Source: an uncultured Dehalococcoidaceae bacterium | Lineage (GTDB): Bacteria > Chloroflexota > Dehalococcoidia > Dehalococcoidales > RBG-16-60-22 | Direction: 5' to 3' | NCBI GenBank assembly: GCA_964595455.1 | Contig: CAZQQL010000002.1 | Span: 725-64,724, forward strand | DNA: 64,000 nt | In this document: piece by piece, positions 4,441-27,350 of the stretch | Layout: each line of letters starts with the position of its first letter | Numbering within the stretch: the stretch's first letter is position 1 | Position numbers and translations under genes: made by a program | The notes under the pieces: model-generated | What the model was told of the DNA's origin: nothing | Databases searched by the model: none | The model's input: only the letters and a program-made list of their open reading frames with translations

Positions 4441-5166
4441 TTAGAACTGGGACAATAATCGGCCGCAGCCCTCTATCCGGTCTTTAATCCCGGCAAGCCG
4501 GAGCATGTTCCACAGCGTTGCCTGGTTGCTGGTGATGACCGGCTTACCCAGGTCCGTTTCCAGGCTCTCGATAATTTCAAGCGTGTGCAGGCTGGTGCAG
4601 CTGATGAACAGGGCCTGGCTCTCCGGCGTATCCACCTCCATGGCCAACTCCCGGAGCATCTCTCTGGAAACTCGGTGTATCTCGAACCCGCCAAGGTCCA
4701 GCCACTTGGCTTTGAGGACTTCGATGCCGTTGTCCTCGACGAATTTAACCGCCACTTTCGCCACTTCTTCCAGGTAGGGCATGGCGATGGATACACGCTC
4801 GATTCCCATTCTCTTCAGCGCTTCGATGACGGAGGTGGATGTCGTCGTCGCCGGGACGTCGGTCACCGACTTGATCTTCTCGATAAGTTCCAGGTCGTAC
4901 TTGTACCCGCCGATGAAGCTGGTGCCCGTCCCGGTCATCGCCACGACGCTCGGCCTGGCGTCCATCAGCAGCTTCGTCGCGTCGATGATGTAGTCCGCCG
5001 CCTTGAACACGTCTTCGAGTCCGTTCGGCTTGCGTATGTCGCCCCCGAACTTGTACCGGTGGTAGTGGCAACTGACCCCTTCCGGGACCGCCATCTCGAA
5101 TTCCGGCTCCGTTACGATGTTCCCTGACGGTACGAGGACTCCCAGCCTGGCTCGCCATCCGTACAT
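4441..5166 (-). CDS. Asp/Glu/hydantoin-racemase superfamily enzyme (maleate cis-trans isomerase / arylmalonate decarboxylase-like)
   Basis: The N-terminus MYGWRARLGVLVPSGNIVTEPEF and the 241-aa length are typical of the maleate isomerase family. Cys-containing segment FISCTSLHT near the C-terminal half. Confidence 0.65.
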   Translation of the reverse strand: MYGWRARLGVLVPSGNIVTEPEFEMAVPEGVSCHYHRYKFGGDIRKPNGLEDVFKAADYIIDATKLLMDARPSVVAMTGTGTSFIGGYKYDLELIEKIKSVTDVPATTTSTSVIEALKRMGIERVSIAMPYLEEVAKVAVKFVEDNGIEVLKAKWLDLGGFEIHRVSREMLRELAMEVDTPESQALFISCTSLHTLEIIESLETDLGKPVITSNQATLWNMLRLAGIKDRIEGCGRLLSQF

Positions 5167-5269
5167 TGACTGTCTCCTTGTGCTTGTCGACGCGTTGAGT
5201 TCGTGGTCGTCTGGTTGGCCTTTCCTTCGTGTGATAAACTAACTAGTAACGGTACCAGGGAGGAAGGCT

Positions 5270-5446
5270 ATGTCACCGAACGCTAAAAGGGCTCTGATCA
5301 CTCTGCTAGGAGGCGCTGGTGTCGTCGTCCTTCTGATAGGACTGTTCACTGACGCCTACGGTTTCTGGGTCGGGATCATTGGGGCGATAGCTATCTGGAT
5401 AGTGACCGGAGCGGTTTCCACCTGGCTCGGAACGAATCAAAAATAG
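5270..5446 (+). CDS. small membrane protein (58 aa, below the ORF-track cutoff)
   Basis: ATG preceded by a strong SD (GGGAGGAAGGCT-ATG). Translation: MSPNAKRALITLLGGAGVVVLLIGLFTDAYGFWVGIIGAIAIWIVTGAVSTWLGTNQK, giving two hydrophobic helices. Followed by a hairpin terminator. Confidence 0.5.
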   Translation: MSPNAKRALITLLGGAGVVVLLIGLFTDAYGFWVGIIGAIAIWIVTGAVSTWLGTNQK

Positions 5447-5497
5447 TGCCGGTTATCGTCACAAACTCCTTGATGTCGTTGCCCCTGTTTTCATGAA

Positions 5498-5530
5498 CCG
5501 GGCGGGATTTCCCGCCCGGGTTTTATTTCT
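5498..5530 (+). terminator. rho-independent terminator-like hairpin
   Basis: CCGGGCGGG-ATTT-CCCGCCCGG followed by GTTTTATTTCT. Lies between the convergent small ORF (+) and the ferredoxin gene (-). Confidence 0.5.
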
Positions 5531-5536
5531 GAACTA

Positions 5537-5839
5537 CTAATAAGTGTCCCGCATCACCTTGCCGGTGACCTTGTCCTTCCACGAGCCCCGCTGCTGTATC
5601 GGCCAGTTGAAGGAGATGGCTCCGGGAGTCGGGCAGTCATTGACACAGGTGCCGCAGTACCAGCACTCGTCGGGGTGCAGGATGATCGGTGGCTTCCCTT
5701 TCTGCGAGTTGGGGATGTACACGTCCACCGGGCAGACCTCGGTACAGATGTTGCAGCCTATGCAAACGGCGGGATCGAATGTCACCGGCGCGCTCGGGGT
5801 GGTTATGTTAGGCAGGGCGTTGAGCTGTATCTTTGCCAT
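5537..5839 (-). CDS. 2x[4Fe-4S] ferredoxin-type small subunit
   Basis: Two CxxCxxCxxxCP motifs (CIGCNICTEVCP, CWYCGTCVNDCP). Sits 10 nt downstream of the flavoprotein gene, so it is probably its electron-transfer subunit. Confidence 0.8.
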   Translation of the reverse strand: MAKIQLNALPNITTPSAPVTFDPAVCIGCNICTEVCPVDVYIPNSQKGKPPIILHPDECWYCGTCVNDCPTPGAISFNWPIQQRGSWKDKVTGKVMRDTY

Positions 5840-5849
5840 CGTTATCTCC

Positions 5850-7781
5850 TTATTTCCGCTGGTAGACGCCGGTGTAGTCCCGGTTGCGTGCTTCGTAATT
5901 GGCCTTCATGTCGCCCCAGAAGTCCATCGGCAGGAAACTGGTAGCGACCCTGTTGTCCTTCAGCTTGATGGCCAGGTACTTGTTCCATTCCGGCGGGTCG
6001 AGTTCCGGGTAGTCGATCCGGCGGAAGTTGAGGGCCACACTGCTGGCTTTCCGGGCCATTGACGCATGCATGACCATCTGTGCGTGGGCCAGCATGCTGA
6101 GGTCTTCGATGCTCCGCATCAGCTTGTGCGGATCGAGGGAGTACAGCCTCGGCACGAACACTTCCTCTATCTCATCGAGCGCCTCGAGGCCGGTCTTCAG
6201 CAGCGATTCGGTCTTGTACTCCGAGCAGAAGTACTGCATCACCCGCGCGATGCCGGCGTTCAGTTCCTTCCATTCGACGCCGCTGTCCCGCCTGATGGGG
6301 GCGTAGACCCGGTTTTTCTCCTTATCCACCTGTTCCCGTGAGACCTTGGGAGGCGCGATTTCCCGGGCGTACACGGACGCCTTACGCCCGGCGTACCTCC
6401 CCGTGCAGGCGGCAAAACTGTGGTCGCCGTGGGAGAACAACTGCTCTCCGGCGGCGTAGAGGCCGTCCAGCGAGCATTTCAGGTCCCAGTCGATGACCGG
6501 ACCGCCGCCTCGCGCCGTCCGCCACTGCGAATGCGTCTCTCCCTCGATGAAGGAGTAATTCTGAAGAAGGTGCTTGCTCGGGTCGAACCCGGCCCGCTCG
6601 TAGGTGCTGGTGATGATCCTGGTTGTGGATTCCTCACCCAACATCAGCTTCCAGGTCGTTTTTCGCTCGATGTCCTTCATGGCGGGGAAATCGCCATAGA
6701 ACGGGAGCGCCCATTCGCCCTTCAAGATACCCTGGCGGATGGCTTCCCGTACCTGCGGGGGCGGCCCCATCTCGCCGCCGTCCTCCCAACCCTGCATCGG
6801 CCACGGCAGCTTCTTCCCGTTGGCGTCCACCAGAGGGACGTTCTCGTAGCTGGCGTCCCCGGCGCCGCCGTACCAGGTGTGCTTGTAGCCGGTACCCAGC
6901 ATCAGCGGGACGGTCTTTTCCATCATCACCAGGTCCGCGCCGGCCCTCCAGGCCATCGCCAGGCCGTCCCCGGTAGCCGTCCGGCTTCGGAACTGCTTGC
7001 TCCCGGCCCGTTCCGTATCGAGCATCCACATGTAAAAGTCGCCGGCGGCGGAAAGAATCGTCGCCTTGGCTTTGAAAATCAGGAATTCCCCGGTGCGGCT
7101 GTTAAGGCCGGTCGCCCCGACCACCCTGGCGCCCTGGACGCCGCCTTCATTCAGGAGGCTGGTGACCATGACGCGGTCGAATATCTGAACGCCCAGTCTC
7201 TGGCATTCTTTCTTCAGGAGCGGCTTGAAATTGGAGCCCCAGATGCGGATGACGAGGTTCATGGTCTGGTTCGGATTGGTGCGCGGAGAGAACATGAACC
7301 TGGTATCTTCATGCCGGCCTTCCGCGCCGACGTATTCATCATCGGTGTCCCTGATCTTGCCGCCCATCTGCTCCATCTCCAGCAGGGTATCGTAGCTCTC
7401 ACGGCACGTTATCTGCGCCCCGATGCCGTTGCCGTACGGGGCTTTCATGGTCATTTTGGGTATGGCGGACATGGTCCCCGGGGTGCCGGCCATCACTTTG
7501 GCCCATTCGTCCGGGTTGACCTTGGAATGAGGATTGGCGGGACACTGGCACCAGTGGTCGCAGCCGGGACCGCCGGAACCGCTCCGGGCGGTATTGCTCT
7601 TTTCCGCCAGGACTACTTTTGCCCCGGTCCGCGCGGCGCTGATGGCCGCCCAGCAGCCGGCTATCCCTCCGCCGATGACGAGGACGTCTGCTTCGACCTC
7701 CCTCTCGGCGTCGTAGTCGACCGGGTAGGGCCAGGGAGGAGCTTTCCCTTCATTGTTGTAATATTCGTGCCACTTGGTCAT
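5850..7781 (-). CDS. FAD-binding flavoprotein of the SdhA/FrdA/AprA family (643 aa)
   Basis: N-terminal dinucleotide fold ADVLVIGGGIAGCWAAISAARTGAKVVLAEK. The size and the adjacent small ferredoxin resemble the AprA/AprB-like architecture. Confidence 0.7.
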   Translation of the reverse strand: MTKWHEYYNNEGKAPPWPYPVDYDAEREVEADVLVIGGGIAGCWAAISAARTGAKVVLAEKSNTARSGSGGPGCDHWCQCPANPHSKVNPDEWAKVMAGTPGTMSAIPKMTMKAPYGNGIGAQITCRESYDTLLEMEQMGGKIRDTDDEYVGAEGRHEDTRFMFSPRTNPNQTMNLVIRIWGSNFKPLLKKECQRLGVQIFDRVMVTSLLNEGGVQGARVVGATGLNSRTGEFLIFKAKATILSAAGDFYMWMLDTERAGSKQFRSRTATGDGLAMAWRAGADLVMMEKTVPLMLGTGYKHTWYGGAGDASYENVPLVDANGKKLPWPMQGWEDGGEMGPPPQVREAIRQGILKGEWALPFYGDFPAMKDIERKTTWKLMLGEESTTRIITSTYERAGFDPSKHLLQNYSFIEGETHSQWRTARGGGPVIDWDLKCSLDGLYAAGEQLFSHGDHSFAACTGRYAGRKASVYAREIAPPKVSREQVDKEKNRVYAPIRRDSGVEWKELNAGIARVMQYFCSEYKTESLLKTGLEALDEIEEVFVPRLYSLDPHKLMRSIEDLSMLAHAQMVMHASMARKASSVALNFRRIDYPELDPPEWNKYLAIKLKDNRVATSFLPMDFWGDMKANYEARNRDYTGVYQRK

Positions 7782-7981
7782 GCTGTGTTTCTCCTCGAAT
7801 CATTGACTTTCCAAAGGCTGAGCGGCGAACGGCCGCCCTTTTCTCATAAACTACAGTTAAACATATCCACTATGCAGCGGTCAAAACACAGGGATCGCAC
7901 CGAGCCGCGGTGTGATGGACATCGTAAAATGATAATACGGGCAGTAACGTTTCAGAAGGCCCCAGTTTGACCTTTGACTTG

Positions 7982-8431
7982 TTAGTGGTACTTCCCCCCG
8001 GAATGCGTGGTGAAGTTGAAGATCGGCTTGTCCACCCGCCGGTAGATGAGCGGGCAATGCATCAGCCCCTTCGGGATGAAGATGATGCAGGATTTGGTCA
8101 GGAGGTGCTTTTCATCGCCGAGCCAGAACTCGACCTCTCCGTTGAGTTCGTAAGGGTCCTCCAGATCAGTCCCGAACATGGCGAGGACTTCATCGTAATC
8201 GTGCTGGTGCGGTTCGGACACAGCCTTCGGTTCCGTGATCAGTCCCCGCGCAGGCGACCACGCCGTCTCCACGTAGAAAGCTCCGGGTACTACTTCGTTA
8301 TCAAGGAACAGCAGGCGGCCTCCCCGGCCTTTTCCGGCGGCCTGGATCGGATTGGTCCACGCTGCCTCGTCGATGTTATGCTTCAACTCCGTGATGATGT
8401 ACTTCCCGTATTTGGTCTCATCCATGATCAA
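7982..8431 (-). CDS. cupin-fold protein, paralog family member 1
   Basis: Cupin motif 1: HQHDYDEVLAMFG (HxHxxxE). Motif 2: FIPKGLMHCP (PxGxxH). Shares the N-terminal KYGKYI and C-terminal VDKPIF pattern with ORFs 16828, 16358, 15479 and 29665. Confidence 0.6.
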   Translation of the reverse strand: MIMDETKYGKYIITELKHNIDEAAWTNPIQAAGKGRGGRLLFLDNEVVPGAFYVETAWSPARGLITEPKAVSEPHQHDYDEVLAMFGTDLEDPYELNGEVEFWLGDEKHLLTKSCIIFIPKGLMHCPLIYRRVDKPIFNFTTHSGGKYH

Positions 8432-8547: not shown

Positions 8548-9021
8548 TCACTCCGGCACATCGCAGAAGTTGGTAAATTCGAGCACCAGGTTGGCAATTT
8601 TCAGGTCTACGTAAGCGGCCCCCATCTTGCCGCTGATGTTCCCGTAGAACGGCACTTCCGCTCCCAGCGCTTTCAGCCGGTCTGTTTCCGCTTCGACGTC
8701 TTCAACCTGGAACCCGATGTGGTGGATGCCCTCCCCTTTGGCCTTGAGGAAGTCCGACCATGGGTTGGGTCCTTCACCCGGCTGGATGAATTCGAGGCTC
8801 ATGTTGCCGTAGCGCAGTATGGCCACCTTCATCCTGTCATCGAAGGGTTTGTCCAGGTAGAACAACCCCTCGGCGCCTTCCGGAGGCGCACCCTGCACCA
8901 GTTCTCCAATGCCTAGTTCCTTTATACGCTCGATGGTCTTGTCCAGGTCTTTGACGAGTACCGCCACGTCCCAGAGTTTCGGTTGCTTCGATTTGGCCGG
9001 CTGATTCGTGTCCATTTGCAT
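8548..9021 (-). CDS. VOC/glyoxalase-family protein (methylmalonyl-CoA epimerase-like)
   Basis: LWDVAVLVKDLDKTIERIKELG and GEGIHHIGFQVEDVEAETDRLKALG are typical of the paired beta-alpha-beta-beta-beta VOC modules. Confidence 0.7.
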   Translation of the reverse strand: MQMDTNQPAKSKQPKLWDVAVLVKDLDKTIERIKELGIGELVQGAPPEGAEGLFYLDKPFDDRMKVAILRYGNMSLEFIQPGEGPNPWSDFLKAKGEGIHHIGFQVEDVEAETDRLKALGAEVPFYGNISGKMGAAYVDLKIANLVLEFTNFCDVPE

Positions 9022-11189: not shown

Positions 11190-11366
11190 AGCGGCGAGTC
11201 TTCCTTTCCCGGCGATGCTCCGTACCTCGTTTATTCATTGTAACCCGTATTCCCGCCGCATATCCACGGAAAAATAAAGTGTCGAAAAAAAGTGACAAAA
11301 CGCCCTTGCTTTTTCGGTACCAGGTGGAGTAATATAGTACACATGTTCTATAAGGTTTAGCTTAAA

Positions 11367-12938
11367 GTGATAAGAACTAATCTCAGTCGACAAAGAGTAT
11401 ATAATCGAGGATTGCTCCTCCTGGCCTTCGAAAATGACTTATTACTTACGTCTATCGATGTATTGGATAAAGAGCACTTTGATCTCCGAACTCAGACATG
11501 GGACGAATACTGGAATTCGATTGCTAAACTGAATAATACAGTATTGAATGATATCTTACGTTTATTGTATTGCGCTTGGAAAGAGTATATTGCATCAAAG
11601 TTCGAGATATCAAAGGCAAATGAGTATTGTTTCTATTATTTTCTACTTCTCGAATCGCTGACTCAGAAGAAATCACAGTTCCCCTTTCAACTGTGGAGAC
11701 TCGCCCTCAGAAAAGTGTTGAGTTTTGAATGTTTTTCAGTTTCGGATTTCTCAACTGATGCGTGTGCCGCCGGTACATGCACATTGCGGAATCCATGTTA
11801 TTTGTTATCGAAACTCAAAATGCCGTCTAGTATGGATGATCCACAATACTTGCCGGTCATAACAACCTCTGCTTCTGTTAAACAGGATCTCTTTTATCAT
11901 TATAGGCAATATCCATTGTCAAATGACTCTTCATACTCCTTGTTGTTGTACCCTTCGGTTTCATTGGAATGTCGCTCCGAGAGTTTTCGCATTATCAACA
12001 CGTTCGTCAGAAGCTTGAGCGAGAAAAACGACCCTAGATCTACAGAAAGGGCTAAACGACTAGACCGAGGCATAGTCCGCAAAATACTAGACGAAAAAAT
12101 CACAAATTCTGAGCGAGTCGAAGTAGAAATCATCGATATTGGTGCAGGTAGTGGAAGCCTGAGTGCGGCAGTATGTGGAGAAATCCATAAGCATCATCCA
12201 AATTGCGTCTTTAAACTAAGGTCTGTAGATTTGGAATTGGCGAATACACATAGACTCCTCCAAAAGAACTTGATCGAATCCATGTCTGTAATCGAGTATT
12301 GTGCAGAAGATTATCGTCGCTGGTGTGGTTGTACACAGGTCATTTCAGGATCTTGCACTATTCGAATAACTATCGTTTCTAAATTATTCAACAATCTGAG
12401 CAATTTTTCTATTCAAGCAATTTCGAGGGAAGCATTGAGGGCAAGTCTCGGTAAATTGGATACTAGCAATACTTTAAGAAATTGTTTGCCTACTTCCTGT
12501 CTGGTTCCTGACAGGCCGCAATACGATCAACTATCGATAAATAATAGAAAAGTGATTCTTCCCGCTGGTAGGGTAATGCCTCAATACTCGCTCTTGCCAT
12601 TCTACGAAGGTATATATTCATGTTTTAAAGCCCAAGAAGAGCCTTCGACTAATAGTGCCGATTGCGTTTTTCTCCCTGTTAGAACGTTTAGTCGGGATTG
12701 TCTTCTTACTTATGATAAGACAAGTATTATTTCTATTTTAATTGAAATGTCCGATTTTGTTATTATTGAAGATGCGGATTTGACACCACAATCCCTTATC
12801 GAGCATGCCAATTCTGTATTGAAGGATTGTTCTGTATTCGATATGACAAAGGTACTTAGGCTAAAAAGAGATTACGTTTACGTCATATGCAGTAACAGAA
12901 CCATCATGCCTTTTATAGGGGGAGAGAGGATATGGTAA
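11367..12938 (+). CDS. large protein with central class-I SAM-methyltransferase-like fold (523 aa), otherwise unknown
   Basis: Motif I-like VEIIDIGAGSGSLSAAV (nt 12121-12160), acidic post-I strand KLRSVDLE, and later ITIVSKLFNNL and DFVIIEDADL. Large N-terminal region (about 250 aa) with no family recognised. GTG start as given by the track, so the start is uncertain. AT-rich. Stop overlaps the next start by 7 nt. Confidence 0.5.
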   Translation: MIRTNLSRQRVYNRGLLLLAFENDLLLTSIDVLDKEHFDLRTQTWDEYWNSIAKLNNTVLNDILRLLYCAWKEYIASKFEISKANEYCFYYFLLLESLTQKKSQFPFQLWRLALRKVLSFECFSVSDFSTDACAAGTCTLRNPCYLLSKLKMPSSMDDPQYLPVITTSASVKQDLFYHYRQYPLSNDSSYSLLLYPSVSLECRSESFRIINTFVRSLSEKNDPRSTERAKRLDRGIVRKILDEKITNSERVEVEIIDIGAGSGSLSAAVCGEIHKHHPNCVFKLRSVDLELANTHRLLQKNLIESMSVIEYCAEDYRRWCGCTQVISGSCTIRITIVSKLFNNLSNFSIQAISREALRASLGKLDTSNTLRNCLPTSCLVPDRPQYDQLSINNRKVILPAGRVMPQYSLLPFYEGIYSCFKAQEEPSTNSADCVFLPVRTFSRDCLLTYDKTSIISILIEMSDFVIIEDADLTPQSLIEHANSVLKDCSVFDMTKVLRLKRDYVYVICSNRTIMPFIGGERIW

Positions 12939-13873
12939 ATATTGGATGGACTGAGCGAAAGTCGCCGTTCTTGTCAGCATCAAGCTTAGCCTGCTTAGCG
13001 CACATCCCGGCCGTGAATATTACTTCTGGCTGCGCCCATGCATGTATTTATTGCTACGCGAAAAGCTACAGAAGTTTTCCTGGTGAAAATAAGGTCGTAA
13101 TTTATAAGGATATAGTTGACAAAATTGGTAGGGAGCTCTCAAGACGGAAGACGAAACCTCATGCGGTTTATTTCAGTCCTTCAAGCGATATGTTCCAACC
13201 CATTCCTGAGGTTCTTGATATTTCCCATGCGCTATTGAAATCGTTGTTTTATAAAGGTATCGGTGTTGCCTTGGTAACCAAAGGAGAAATTCCAGAACAA
13301 ACTCTGCATCTCCTTTTACAAAACGCAAATATGGTCAAGGCGCAAATAGGCCTTATTACTCATGACGAACAAACTAGACGTTTGTTCGAACCTTACGCGG
13401 CAAGTGTCGACACTCGTCTTCGCCAGATGACACTTATGTCCAATGGCGGCATTGACGTCAGAGCTAGAATAGTGCCGATTATACCTGGTATTACCGATAC
13501 TGTCAAAGACATTAATGCCCTTCTGCAATCCATTTCCACGACGGGAATTACCTGTATTTCGATTAGTGCTCTTTTCCTGAGACCGGCCATTCTGGCCTCG
13601 ATCAGGCATCATATTTCGGTTAGCCAACAACTGGGAAAAACGCTGGATCTCTATAGAGAGGCAAAAAGGATTTCAGTCCATGCGTCCAATTCCACAATCA
13701 TTCCTCTTCCACGAAATATTAGGGAAGGAATTTATCAACGCTTTAGAAGCATCGCAGAAGAATATGGGATGGAAACATCGATTTGTGGTTGTATGAACCC
13801 GGATATTGGAGGATTTTGCAGCATCGCCGGCAATTGGCCAGAAAGTGAGAAACAGCTAAATTGGAACATGTAG
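12932..13873 (+). CDS. radical SAM enzyme, SplB / COG1533 (DNA-repair-photolyase-like) type
   Basis: CxxxCxxC cluster motif in the context NITSGCAHACIYCYAKSY (nt 13031-13054). This resembles the GC.H.C.YCYA pattern of the spore-photoproduct-lyase-related group. 313 aa. Confidence 0.7.
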   Translation: MVNIGWTERKSPFLSASSLACLAHIPAVNITSGCAHACIYCYAKSYRSFPGENKVVIYKDIVDKIGRELSRRKTKPHAVYFSPSSDMFQPIPEVLDISHALLKSLFYKGIGVALVTKGEIPEQTLHLLLQNANMVKAQIGLITHDEQTRRLFEPYAASVDTRLRQMTLMSNGGIDVRARIVPIIPGITDTVKDINALLQSISTTGITCISISALFLRPAILASIRHHISVSQQLGKTLDLYREAKRISVHASNSTIIPLPRNIREGIYQRFRSIAEEYGMETSICGCMNPDIGGFCSIAGNWPESEKQLNWNM

Positions 13874-14526
13874 CCAAAACTATGACCGAAATGAATAAAA
13901 TTGCGCGTTTACCAATTGACCTCCTCGTTGCCCACCCGGAAAATAGTAACTTCATGAGAGCGGAGACCATCAGGAAATTACGGCTCCATATAGAGCAAAC
14001 TGGTAGGTATGAACCTTTGACGGTAAGAAAGCACCCTTGCGAAGTTGATAAGTTTCAAGTGATAAATGGGCATAACCGTTTACAGGTTCTTCGGTCTTTG
14101 AATAGACAGATGGTAGATTGTGTGATCTGGAATCTTGATGACCAGCAGGCAAGGTTATATTTAGCGACACTGAACCGACTATCTGGAAAGGAAATCCCTG
14201 AACGAAGGGCAGTCCTCATACAGAGATTGCTTCAATTGAACGACCAAGAAGAGTTGATCGGTTTGCTTCCTGAAAGCGAAAAGCAATTGGAGTATCTCCA
14301 ACGATTGTCAAATTTGGAAATGCCTGTATTGGTCGAGAAGGATCCTGTCGGACCATTGATCAATTCTCCAGTCATGCTTACTTTTTTTATGGAGAAAACA
14401 GAAGCTAAGGAATTGAACTTGGCGATTGATTTAGTTTTAGAGTGTGTTAACAAGAGCTTTTCACGCGGTACATCTCTCGCGCATATAGCTCATTTTTATC
14501 TCCACAATGAACGGAGATGCAAATAA
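13861..14526 (+). CDS. ParB/Srx N-terminal-domain protein (ParB-like nuclease/NTPase fold)
   Basis: IARLPIDLLVAHPENSNFM ... YEPLTVRK ... FQVINGHNRLQVL (nt about 14051-14092) matches the ParB N-terminal box with a GxxR-type motif. Start uncertain: TTG 13861, ATG 13882 or ATG 13891. Confidence 0.65.
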   Translation: MEHVAKTMTEMNKIARLPIDLLVAHPENSNFMRAETIRKLRLHIEQTGRYEPLTVRKHPCEVDKFQVINGHNRLQVLRSLNRQMVDCVIWNLDDQQARLYLATLNRLSGKEIPERRAVLIQRLLQLNDQEELIGLLPESEKQLEYLQRLSNLEMPVLVEKDPVGPLINSPVMLTFFMEKTEAKELNLAIDLVLECVNKSFSRGTSLAHIAHFYLHNERRCK

Positions 14527-14819
14527 TGATAGAAAAGATATATTCCGAAAAATTAGCTTCGAGTAAACTGAACGAGAAACCGGAAGGAGTACTCATTCTC
14601 GTTGAAAGTCCTGATCTGGCAAAGATAGTGATTGCCTGGACGAACCTGGATGTCACATGTTCTGACACTCTCACTGAATACAAAGGCCGGTCTGATGCTG
14701 AAGCCTGGGAATGGCTATGGGCTAACACCATCTATGATCTTGGTAAGGCTCAAGGAAAGCATCGGCATATCTATGCCCGCCCGTGCTCTGGAAAACAAGC
14801 TGAGAAAGCTGATCAATAA
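14526..14819 (+). CDS. small hypothetical protein, last gene(s) of the AT-rich cassette
   Basis: ATG 14526 overlaps the ParB-like stop as TAATG (an alternative ATG lies at 14517). The product is plausible up to ...WANTIYDLGKAQ. The tail GKHRHIYARPCSGKQAEKADQ looks out of frame. Confidence 0.35.
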   Translation: MIEKIYSEKLASSKLNEKPEGVLILVESPDLAKIVIAWTNLDVTCSDTLTEYKGRSDAEAWEWLWANTIYDLGKAQGKHRHIYARPCSGKQAEKADQ

Positions 14820-14925
14820 TCGAATCATTTACCCGGACGGCACCGTCAATTCCTTCGTTCAGAGGTATTTGAGAGAACAGGTGGTCAGGCTCTTCGATCC
14901 GAAGCTGAAGAAGGCCGCAAAATAA
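14734..14925 (+). CDS. small HTH-like ORF overlapping the previous ORF in the +1 frame
   Basis: MILVRLKESIGISMPARALENKLRKLINNRIIYPDGTVNSFVQRYLREQVVRLFDPKLKKAAK. The ..IGIS....LENKLRKL.. stretch is HTH-like. It may be a separate gene or the frameshifted C-terminus of 14526..14819. Confidence 0.3.
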   Translation: MILVRLKESIGISMPARALENKLRKLINNRIIYPDGTVNSFVQRYLREQVVRLFDPKLKKAAK

Positions 14926-14930
14926 TTCAA

Positions 14931-14954
14931 CAAAAAGGGCGGCCAAAGCCGCCC
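14931..14954 (-). terminator. rho-independent terminator (minus strand)
   Basis: GGGCGGC-CAAA-GCCGCCC. On the minus strand the hairpin is followed by TTTTTG. Lies downstream of the SnoaL-like gene. Confidence 0.55.
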
Positions 14955-14988
14955 CTGAAAGGAAAAACTAACCGAAAAAATATCGGAT

Positions 14989-26286: not shown

Positions 26287-26814
26287 CTACTTGCCCCCCT
26301 CTTTCTCCCTGTCGAACTCCTGGATAAGCTCCAGAGCATCCTTCTTCATTATCTTCAATATCTGGTTGAGCGACGTAAGCTGTTCTTCGTTCAGCGAGCG
26401 GAACAGCATCTTGCTGCTCCGCTCACGGGACTGGGTGGTCGCCTTCTTCACCAGATCGATGCCTTTCTGGGTGATCGTCACATTCCTCACCCGGCGGTCG
26501 GTATCGCTCCCTACCTCCATCCGCTTCACAAAACCCTGCTTTTCCAGAGTATCCAGTATCTTCGTCACGGCATGCTTGGACCGGAACGTCCTGCGGCTGA
26601 TTTCCGTCGGCATCATCACGGTGTTGTGCAGGATGAGCAGGTGCAGTACGTTGAAACCGGCCCGCGTGATAGGATGTTCCCTCGCCTCGATGTCCACGAA
26701 ACGTGAAATGATGTCCGAAGCGTTCAGAAAAAGCAGCAGCGTGTCCACCCTCAACTCGGCAGCCTGGGCCTTGATGTCCTTGGCGATCAGCTTCGCGCTG
26801 TTCTCGATGTTCAT
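26287..26814 (-). CDS. MarR-family transcriptional regulator
   Basis: Winged-HTH core: MMPTEISRRTFRSKHAVTKILDTLEKQGFVKRMEVGSDTDRRVRNVTITQKG. Start set at MNIENSAKL. Confidence 0.8.
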   Translation of the reverse strand: MNIENSAKLIAKDIKAQAAELRVDTLLLFLNASDIISRFVDIEAREHPITRAGFNVLHLLILHNTVMMPTEISRRTFRSKHAVTKILDTLEKQGFVKRMEVGSDTDRRVRNVTITQKGIDLVKKATTQSRERSSKMLFRSLNEEQLTSLNQILKIMKKDALELIQEFDREKEGGK

Positions 26815-26955
26815 GCTCGTTTGTCCTTTTTGTCCCTGGGTAGATAATAACATAGTATACTATACCAGCGTATACGGTATAAAGGGTAGCCTATCTGCTT
26901 CGCCTGCCCTTCTGCTGCCTTGTTTCCTGGTGCGAAAATAAGTGACAAAACTTAC

Positions 26956-26985
26956 TTTACAATACTAGAAAATATGTTCTATAAT
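26956..26985 (+). promoter_or_regulatory. sigma70-like promoter (TTTACA, 18-nt spacer, TATAAT)
   Basis: TTTACA at 26956-26961 and TATAAT at 26980-26985. It points into the 340-nt non-coding region upstream of the aminopeptidase gene. Confidence 0.35.
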
Positions 26986-27350
26986 TTGTTTGCGCGCAGG
27001 CTTTATGGTGAGCACGAATGGGTAGCGCGGCATCTTGCCCGCGGCCTCTCACAGAATGAAGTATGAGCCGTAGGGTGGGTACCGCTTGCGGTACCCACCG
27101 GTCGCCGTACATTGGATAGCTGCACCTGTCAACGAAGTAAGAAAACCGACCGGCAATAGAAAACTGGTCGTAAGAAAACAAATAACAGCTATGGTCATGA
27201 GAAGCCGGGCTACGGCTCCTCCAGGGTGAAACATGACCTGAAATATTCGGTCCCTTTGAGCCTGAGAAAATTGTATAAAACTGAAAATGACAGAACGAAT
27301 CTATCTGTTACAATACGAAGAAACCACTAATTATGATCGGAGGCCTATTC

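Follow-up and report, generated by a model that had tools for sequence, protein, structure and literature searches.

The window analysed here, a 64,000-nt stretch of contig CAZQQL010000002.1 from an uncultured Dehalococcoidaceae bacterium, carries a compact four-gene cassette (A-B-C-D) that recurs in unrelated uncultivated bacteria, usually with C and D and in many loci as an island-like insertion. Its genes encode a predicted methyltransferase-fold protein (A), a radical S-adenosylmethionine (SAM) enzyme of the spore photoproduct lyase (SPL)/COG1533 lineage (B), a protein with the ParB/sulfiredoxin (Srx) fold (C) and a small orphan protein (D). An operator-like box follows the promoter of the cassette, and in some related loci a lexA gene lies upstream of gene A. 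Our tentative reading, offered with reserve, is that the cassette is an SOS-induced, mobile module that directs radical-SAM chemistry to DNA for the repair or processing of lesions. We infer that the products of genes A and B form a complex and that a DNA lesion is its substrate.

Conservation of the operon

Genes A to D form an AT-rich operon on one strand (plus, window 11367-14925), as seen in the list of open reading frames (ORFs) and in the composition profile (Table 1). Related loci were gathered from neighbourhood look-ups and from scans of 30 species genomes and 80 metagenome contigs, giving 101 distinct loci; per-gene counts use the loci with room for the gene in question. Gene B directly follows gene A in 81 of 82 loci, with an identical 7-nt overlap in 79. 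Gene C is found in 36 of 48 loci and gene D in 29 of 48, while a group of Phycisphaerae and Pirellulales loci carries A-B alone. All four products have many homologues, so they are real genes and not chance ORFs. The hosts are all uncultivated and belong mainly to the Chloroflexota/Dehalococcoidia, next to the Planctomycetota (including Brocadiaceae), with single cases in Gemmatimonadota, Armatimonadota, and Chitinispirillaceae. Flanking genes vary by locus and are mostly of housekeeping or metabolic type, with toxin–antitoxin pairs or transposases now and then. Two rearranged loci were also seen: in an armatimonadotal locus (L026, 7566-9555) two tandem copies of gene B come after gene A, and in L024 the order is A, C, and then a divergent radical SAM gene. 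Literature searches returned no description of the cassette, the gene A family, or the gene D family.

The original prediction, which treated the segment as a candidate DNA-modification or defence-type system, had the stops and starts of all neighbouring genes overlapping. This was borne out at two of the junctions. The stop of gene A and the start of gene B overlap as ATGGTAA, and genes C and D meet as TAATG. The overlap between B and C is doubtful, because gene C most likely starts at the ATG at 13882, 8 nt past the stop of gene B, and in homologous loci gene C begins 4-16 nt past gene B.

Promoter and putative LexA-type operator

Upstream of gene A, conservation outside coding sequence is confined to a promoter and a box. 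Many loci have the layout GTGACAAAA, 4-5 nt, CTTG(T/C), a spacer of ~17 nt, and TATAAT. At 6-8 nt past TATAAT there is a near-palindrome, TAG(T/C/A)ACATATGTTCTT, with the core GAAC-N4-GTTC. The consensus of the box across loci is TAGTACATATGTTCTT, and its position relative to the -10 is fixed. A LexA-type box with at most one mismatch, no more than 130 nt upstream of gene A, is present in 37 of 90 loci, compared to 4.9% expected from the remainder of the same loci. In the window, the operator core begins 2 nt past the -10, and it is the single exact match to the pattern AGNACANNTGTTCT in the 64 kb. Other LexA-like matches with one mismatch (at 421 and 6434) lie inside coding sequence and were taken as chance. 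A generic sigma-70 scan did not flag the promoter at 11292-11335, so its assignment rests on conservation. The LexA protein of Dehalococcoides reportedly uses GAAC-N4-GTTC. Binding of LexA at 11335-11350 is what the sequence suggests, GAAC-N4-GTTC being the LexA motif of Gram-positive bacteria (PMC3323433).

A link to lexA is also found at the level of gene order. In one Planctomycetota element (seen in both L008 and L018), a true lexA gene with LexA_DNA_bind and Peptidase_S24 domains and an AG cleavage site ends ~29 nt before gene A on the same strand. In L022, lexA is upstream of gene A with an insertion sequence (IS)-like ORF that bears a helix-turn-helix (HTH) domain in between.

A second site with the promoter grammar of the cassette, GTGACAAAActtaCTTTACAatacTAGAAAATATGTTCTATAAT, occurs in the window at 26942-26985, with a LexA-like box between the -35 and the -10. 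It is intergenic, after a divergent MarR-family gene (26287-26853), and beyond it come ~350 nt without a convincing ORF and then an aminopeptidase-like gene at 27333. A perfect 12-bp hairpin is located downstream, near 27065-27095. The site could belong to a LexA-controlled small RNA or leader, or it could be a remnant of another islet.

Gene B and its SOS-linked lineage

Gene B has the cluster motif CAHACIYC (CxxxCxxC) and scores 47.1 bits on Pfam Radical_SAM (PF04055), above the cut-off of 29.5. The NCBIfam models closest to it are those of PA0069, Rv2578c, and 'mobile pair B', which all belong to COG1533 and all score far below their cut-offs, whereas MiaB, pyruvate formate-lyase activating enzyme (PFL-AE), and like families match at 1e-6 or worse. 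The scores are 95.6 bits for the PA0069 family NF033668 (cut-off 360), 84.1 bits for the Rv2578c family NF038135 (cut-off 430), and 18.9 bits for spore photoproduct lyase proper, TIGR04070 (cut-off 400); gene B is a member of none of the three. Because these values are so far under the cut-offs, gene B is, by sequence, a separate subfamily within the SPL/COG1533 lineage. Homologues often carry the SPL domain PF20903 and go by the names 'DNA repair photolyase' or 'SPL family radical SAM'; the PHROG matches are phrog_13321 and a 'DNA repair photolyase' PHROG. No sequence match to gene B was found among solved structures. The assignment of this protein to the COG1533/SPL lineage, already suggested in the original prediction, is thus supported by PF04055, the NCBIfam matches, and PF20903 on homologues.

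The lineage has a recurrent place in the SOS response. The COG1533 radical SAM gene ('splB') is a core SOS gene in Gram-positives (PMC7739468) and is part of the SOS regulon in alpha- and beta-proteobacteria (PMC3323433) and in Bacteroidetes (PMC8565304). In Mycobacterium tuberculosis, Rv2578c is a LexA target by ChIP-seq (PMC3381160), and a COG1533 radical SAM is listed in the Streptomyces LexA regulon (PMC9380542).

Gene A, an orphan protein with a methyltransferase fold

At least 173 close homologues of gene A are known, and none has a Pfam domain or a name. An exhaustive profile search covering 1.84 billion representatives gave a family of 399 clusters at 50% identity with E≤0.001, and 328 with E≤1e-10, all of the ranked clusters being family members. 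From a 31-sequence alignment, AlphaFold2 produced a confident model (predicted local distance difference test, pLDDT, 87.4; predicted template-modelling score, pTM, 0.88). Foldseek searches with this model returned class-I methyltransferases exclusively, and the matches were weak (best E=1.7e-3 in the PDB and 9e-6 in BFVD, template-modelling (TM) score at most 0.26). Motif I, DIGAGSGS (D257-x-G-x-G-S-G), and the acidic residue D288 in VDLE are invariant in the 31 sequences. The confident Rossmann model, the methyltransferase matches, and these invariant residues together make a SAM pocket in gene A credible, in line with the class-I SAM-binding fold first proposed for the 523-aa protein.

At the sequence level gene A stands apart. 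Pfam Methyltransf_28 reaches 19.1 bits, under its cut-off of 23.3, and the protein is a member of no curated methyltransferase family. A profile search of the PDB gave no sequence link to solved structures (best E=2.4), and there is no detectable sequence similarity to known DNA methylases, including the methylase of the sister islet described below. Methyl transfer is a putative activity of the gene A product.

Genes C and D

The ParB/sulfiredoxin fold proposed for gene C is supported by a PHROG ParB-like match (E=6e-17), by PDB matches to Noc/ParB (E=6e-6), and by ParB_N matches above threshold on homologues in L003, L006, and L007. On gene C itself, ParB_N (PF02195) scores 25.1 bits (E=1.8e-5), just below the cut-off of 26.3. 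The protein is not a partition ParB: the CTP-binding GERRxRA box is replaced, GERR being GHNR in the sequence VINGHNRL (GERRWRA aligns with GHNRLQV), and TIGR00180 gives 25.7 against a cut-off of 58.45. In PADLOC and PHROG, it comes closest to the ParB domains of fusions between ParB and a methyltransferase. All three motifs behind the first assignments of the cassette proteins, EIIDIGAGSGSL, CAHACIYCYA, and FQVINGHNRLQVL, are present.

Gene D has at least 774 homologues at ~60% identity, none of them annotated. The ORF list shows small ORFs at 14517/14526-14819 and, in another frame, at 14632-14925. Frames a (14526-14744) and b (~14747-14925) jointly match 134-aa homologues end to end, and in each homologous locus that is complete, an uninterrupted protein of ~134 aa is encoded after the ParB gene. 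One additional A, in GGTAAGG at 14745/14746, causes the break and is absent from every intact homologue. The 'small ORF(s)' of the original prediction are therefore one ~133-aa gene split by a 1-nt insertion, which could be either a real pseudogene or an assembly error. One other contig of the same organism (L043) stops within gene C, before gene D is reached. The HTH character suggested earlier for this protein survives as a sequence pattern, the middle segment YSLxELKEKIGxSFSExALENK looking HTH-like. The AlphaFold2 model of gene D is poor (pLDDT 48), and the PDB profile search was negative.

Insertion at tRNA and tmRNA genes

Copies of the cassette are associated with tRNA and transfer-messenger RNA (tmRNA) genes. 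The density of such genes is 0.118 per kb within 1.6 kb of the cassette, compared to 0.006 per kb farther out in the same loci (~19-fold), and the RNA gene almost always has its 3' end toward the cassette. A direct repeat of the tRNA or tmRNA 3' end is found beyond the cassette in at least 12 loci, and the unit so bounded contains the cassette alone. These units are 3.0-4.2 kb in size, hold only A-B or A-B-C-D, and target at least eight different tRNA or tmRNA genes (Table 1). The best repeats in shuffled controls were 11-17 nt long, well under the longer repeats of the related loci, so that the shortest repeats in the table are not significant by length alone. In L025, a direct repeat of ~370 nt (811-1181 and 5314-5685, 83-93% identical), which includes tRNA 3' halves, flanks the cassette; the full tRNA-Lys is on the D side with its 5' end toward the cassette, opposite to how islands are usually arranged.

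Conserved element ends are found in one Dehalococcoidia lineage. On the promoter side, next to the tRNA-derived core, the end reads ACAATAGGCAGAACTTTTGAACT..AGCCTCACAAT, and on the D side 2-3 copies of GGTTTTAC touch the tRNA-derived core. The promoter-side end in L038 itself includes GAACTTGAGTTC. By their sequence, these termini look like arm-type recombination sites. In addition, the cassette is poorer in G+C than its flanks in 28 of 32 loci; the mean difference is 5 points, and the largest gap (16.7 points) is in the window.

An iterated integrase profile found no integrase inside the repeat-bounded units; tyrosine integrases were found solely outside them. In one clade (L042, L016, L075, L081, L082, L087, L091, and L123), a full-length tyrosine integrase is located ~1.4 kb upstream of gene A on the same strand, and in L042 (5602-7766) the stretch from the integrase to gene A holds a PIN gene and a nucleotidyltransferase (NTP_transf_2) gene. 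This clade is without the Gram-positive-type LexA box and has another conserved upstream sequence, GGGGTGACACGAACC..CTAGGCTGA. Integrase fragments adjoin L041 and other copies. Given an integrase upstream in one clade and remnants at other copies, the economical explanation for the movement of these units is that they are mobilised in trans or derive from an ancestor with an integrase.

Sister islets, composite operons and decay

At a tRNA-Ala gene in L050, two islets form a tandem array. The first is A-B-C-D. The second (5013-8353) is a sister islet that codes for a ParB_N+N6_N4 DNA-methylase fusion (412 aa), an SPL-family radical SAM enzyme (392 aa), and gene D. It shares its element ends and promoter with the A-B-C-D islet and has a perfect LexA box, GAACATCTGTTC, at ~5324-5335. 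The methylase fusion stands in the place of A and C, and the SPL enzyme, to which gene B is 26% identical, in the place of B. Motif IV of the fusion is GPPY, which departs from the usual (D/N/S)PPY.

Further genes have joined the cassette elsewhere. The element shared by L008 and L018 (L008 9208-15264) is an operon of lexA, A, B, C, a DUF523/2-thiouracil desulfurase (TudS) gene, a canonical SPL gene, and D. Near 8790, ahead of lexA, is a 3' fragment resembling that of a tRNA, ggttcaaatccgcc. In L033 (432-1792), 28-nt repeats of the tmRNA 3' end enclose a 1-kb unit whose sole gene is DUF523/TudS-like, and an A-B cassette comes directly after it. This tmRNA site is thus a tandem islet array.

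Decay has affected the genes unequally. Of the 101 loci, 12 have a cassette gene broken by a frameshift or an in-frame stop, with 13 events in total: 11 in gene A (L005, L021, L024, L032, L038, L048, L052, L081, L098, L103, and L115), two in gene D, and none in B or C. By length, gene A would be expected to take ~44% of random disruptions; it is therefore lost more often than its share, and B and C are retained. The stops in gene A are mostly of the C-to-T type (CGA to TGA, CAG to TAG, TGG to TGA). Recoding with selenocysteine or similar was considered and rejected, because all three stop codons occur and, save for one shared CGA-to-TGA site, they are scattered over differing alignment positions like ordinary C-to-T nonsense mutations.

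The copy in the window

The window copy lies in a segment of low G+C content (0.35-0.48 over ~11230-14960) with 0.55-0.67 on both sides; overall, the cassette has 0.418 and its flanks 0.585. The contrast noticed in the original prediction is real on the inside, and its estimate of about 75% for the flank was wrong. Horizontal acquisition, also proposed there, agrees with this gap and with the direct repeats of tRNA and tmRNA ends in related loci. The flanking genes are metabolic and encode a glyoxalase, an AAT-family protein, an NAD-binding dehydrogenase, a SnoaL-like protein, and a cupin. In the look-up for taxonomy, the flank proteins were unnamed singletons. The hairpin that marks the end of the low-GC segment is, from its sequence, a probable terminator; the terminator scan scores it on the minus strand, and on the plus strand it is without a T-run.

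The 64-kb window contains no tRNA genes, no integrase detectable with the iterated integrase profile, and no Rfam RNA family. Attachment repeats around this cassette were not found above chance, and a search for an empty site found none: the sole other contig with the left-flank gene also carries the cassette. With A, B, and C intact, D frameshifted, and no recognisable attachment repeats, this copy looks like an old, fixed, partly decaying insertion.

Table 1. Positions of the cassette features in the window, and islets and element ends in related loci (locus coordinates)
Feature	Location	Strand	Description
Promoter	11292-11335	+	GTGACAAAA 11292-11300; -35-like TTGCTT 11306-11311; 18-nt spacer; -10-like TAATAT 11330-11335
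LexA-type (Cheo-box) operator, putative	11335-11350		TAGTACACATGTTCTA; core GTACACATGTTC 11337-11348, 1 mismatch to GAAC-N4-GTTC
Gene A	11367-12938	+	523 aa, orphan family; helical N-terminal domain and divergent class-I (Rossmann) SAM-binding fold, predicted
Gene B	12932-13873	+	313 aa, radical SAM of the SPL/COG1533 ('DNA repair photolyase') lineage
Gene C	13882-14526	+	214 aa (221 aa from TTG 13861), ParB/Srx fold
Gene D	14526-14925	+	~133 aa, orphan small protein, HTH-like middle, basic tail; frame-broken here
G+C-rich hairpin	14935-14956		AAGGGCGGCCAAAGCCGCCCCT; past the end of gene D, before the convergent SnoaL-like gene; the low-GC segment ends here
Islet in L010	tRNA-Met		repeat 50 nt; unit 3884 nt
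Islet in L012	tmRNA		repeat 17 nt; unit 3991 nt
Islet in L030	tmRNA		repeat 25 nt; unit 3396 nt, A-B only
Islet in L031	tmRNA		repeat 29 nt; unit 3256 nt, A-B only
Islet in L054	tRNA-Asp		repeat 72 nt; unit ~4.1 kb
Islet in L041	tRNA-Val		repeat 14 nt; unit 3846 nt
Islet in L036	tRNA-Ser		repeat 13 nt; unit 3102 nt, A-B only
Islet in L029	tRNA-Pro		repeat 12 nt; unit 3003 nt, A-B only
Islet in L013	tRNA-Asn		repeat 12 nt; unit 4169 nt
Islet in L024	tRNA-Met		repeat 28 nt; unit 3575 nt
Islet in L025	tRNA-Lys region		repeated region ~370 nt; unit ~4.5 kb
Promoter-side element ends, Dehalococcoidia lineage	L038 1603-1650; L039 7662-7700, 11662-11700; L047 3339-3396, 7382-7439; L041 7822-7860
Right element ends, Dehalococcoidia lineage	L038 5600-5630; L039 11620-11650; L050 4985-5012, 8251-8280

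Proposed function and alternatives

As expected by the original prediction, the genes co-occur in unrelated genomes of several phyla, the radical SAM protein falls in the lineage it named, gene A has a credible SAM pocket, and no named system matches. The defence label found no support. There is no nuclease or effector, no recurrent defence gene or defence-island context among the neighbours in the window and the related loci, and no viral or PADLOC match, while the LexA box, the lexA link, and the SOS-regulon lineage of gene B point to the DNA-damage response. In PADLOC-DB v2, weak Type II methyltransferase profiles alone were matched, by A (E=0.008) and, via its ParB domain, by C (E=3.9e-7), and nothing by B or D; without a meaningful match, a named defence system was rejected. 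An origin from a phage or satellite was also rejected, as a set of 2.9 million viral contigs contains no relatives of genes A and D, and neither gene has a PHROG match.

In the module that we propose, LexA would sit on the operator just past the -10 in the undamaged cell and keep the operon off. After DNA damage, activated RecA would promote the self-cleavage of LexA, and A-B-C-D would then be made jointly through translational coupling. The product of gene B would be the enzymatic core and apply a 5'-deoxyadenosyl radical to DNA. The product of gene A would pair tightly with it and probably recognise and flip out the target base, and the products of C and D may bring the A-B pair to DNA or regulate it. 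The likeliest task would be the direct reversal or processing of a DNA lesion that arises in the anoxic conditions of the hosts. Lesion repair is favoured because of how the operon is regulated, the precedent set by the lineage, the SPL and DUF523 genes recruited to the same operon or array, and the lack of an effector or defence context.

Several observations weigh against this proposal. Lesion reversal has no obvious need of a methyltransferase-fold partner or a ParB protein, and the ParB-N6/N4 methylase fusion that accompanies SPL and D in L050 speaks for DNA modification. Moreover, the cassette behaves as a mobile islet, with a G+C content under that of the host in most loci, and the preferential knock-out of gene A would suit a costly or selfish gene better than a repair gene. 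The habitats of the hosts are dark and anoxic, and ultraviolet photoproducts are unlikely there. SOS control depends on LexA binding that is predicted from sequence, and over half of the loci are without the Gram-positive-type box, including most Planctomycetota and one Dehalococcoidia clade. The loci without a box come mostly from taxa or clades whose LexA motif stayed undefined; for the Planctomycetota, two lexA gene promoters carry differing palindromes and no motif could be defined.

Of the alternatives, the original prediction's own reading comes closest to ours in strength, and we regard it as rather unlikely. Here the cassette would serve a mobile element as a DNA modification module timed by the SOS response, either for self-protection (anti-restriction) or within an immunity system. 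Gene A, or the ParB-methylase of the sister islet, would mark bases, gene B would elaborate or remove the mark by radical chemistry, and C and D would provide targeting. Such a scheme makes direct use of the SAM-binding fold of gene A and of the kinship of gene C with ParB domains of methyltransferase fusions in PADLOC and PHROG. It also accommodates the sister islet, in which the same ends, promoter, and LexA box surround a methylase fusion with SPL and D, the mobile, island-like behaviour, and the preferential inactivation of gene A, as for a costly activity. However, it lacks a restriction or effector gene, PADLOC finds no system, the neighbours are metabolic, and A and D are without matches in the viral contigs. 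The unusual motif IV of the sister-islet methylase and the lack of detectable similarity of gene A to known DNA methylases also speak against it, and SOS control with the lexA link suits a damage response better.

The cassette in the window might instead be an inert, decaying remnant of a past insertion without current function, which seems improbable. The frameshift in gene D, the window's lack of tRNA genes, of repeats around the cassette, and of an integrase, and the nonsense or frameshift mutations in 12 of the 101 related loci would fit a remnant, but A, B, and C are full length with all invariant family residues kept, promoter and operator are intact, and faulty assembly could account for the extra base in gene D.

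An autonomous mobile element without an integrase, whose own proteins (A with or without B, and C and D as accessories) would carry out SOS-induced integration and excision at tRNA and tmRNA ends, is very improbable: the repeat-bounded units of cassette genes alone at so many RNA genes in several phyla, the conserved ends in one lineage, the tandem arrays, the high tRNA density, an SOS control typical of mobility genes, and a gene A that is pseudogenised preferentially, like integrases in decaying islands, would all suit it, but no cassette protein resembles a known recombinase, transposase, or nuclease, the upstream integrase of one clade and the integrase remnants make trans mobilisation or integrase loss simpler, and the lineage of gene B has a known non-mobility role.

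Comparison with known systems

The closest known relatives are the SOS 'SplB-like' COG1533 genes of the PA0069 and Rv2578c families, with which gene B has the lineage and the LexA-type box in common (PMC7739468, PMC8565304, PMC3323433, PMC3381160). In contrast to these, gene B is second in a coupled operon with A, C, and D, partners that the cited SOS literature does not give to splB, and the cassette is mobile as a whole unit. Thus, the cassette adds three fixed partners and mobility to the known theme of a single LexA-regulated splB gene. SplB of Bacillus and Clostridium, the spore photoproduct lyase, is a CxxxCxxC radical SAM enzyme like gene B; PF20903 is found on gene B homologues, and a canonical SPL gene is located in the L008 operon and replaces gene B in the L050 sister islet. 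Gene B differs in its very low score on TIGR04070 and in its length of 313 aa, and its hosts are non-sporulating anaerobes.

Islands that target tRNA and tmRNA genes, including integrase-less cis-mobilisable ones, likewise show direct 3'-end repeats, tandem arrays, and low G+C content. Compared to these, the cassette unit is only 3-4 kb, has no integrase, occurs in both orientations relative to the tRNA gene, and has the A-B(-C-D) operon with its LexA-type box as its sole coding content. The dnd (DndB) and dpd (DpdB) systems and the ParB-methyltransferase fusions of phages and plasmids resemble the cassette in placing a ParB/Srx protein beside SAM-dependent and Fe-S enzymes. Unlike dnd and dpd, it has no DndACDE, DpdA/C, or queuosine-pathway (7-deazaguanine) genes among the annotated neighbours in the window and the related loci, and no PADLOC match. 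The imuA-imuB-dnaE2 SOS mutagenesis cassette is also multigene and LexA-controlled and has also spread horizontally; its proteins are unrelated to those described here, and our cassette has no polymerase.

Significance

The LexA-regulated COG1533 radical SAM gene is among the most widespread SOS genes whose chemistry is unsolved. The fixed partners A, C, and D and the DNA-methylase domain of the sister islet narrow the possible substrates to DNA, and the cassette offers a clonable four-gene unit. Moreover, two sizeable protein families that are free of annotation come into view, namely A (~400 clusters at 50% identity) and D (774 or more homologues). A DNA-damage-response operon that travels as an integrase-less islet of 3-4 kb, among Dehalococcoidia, Planctomycetota, and other uncultivated anaerobes, would also raise the question of how such islets move.

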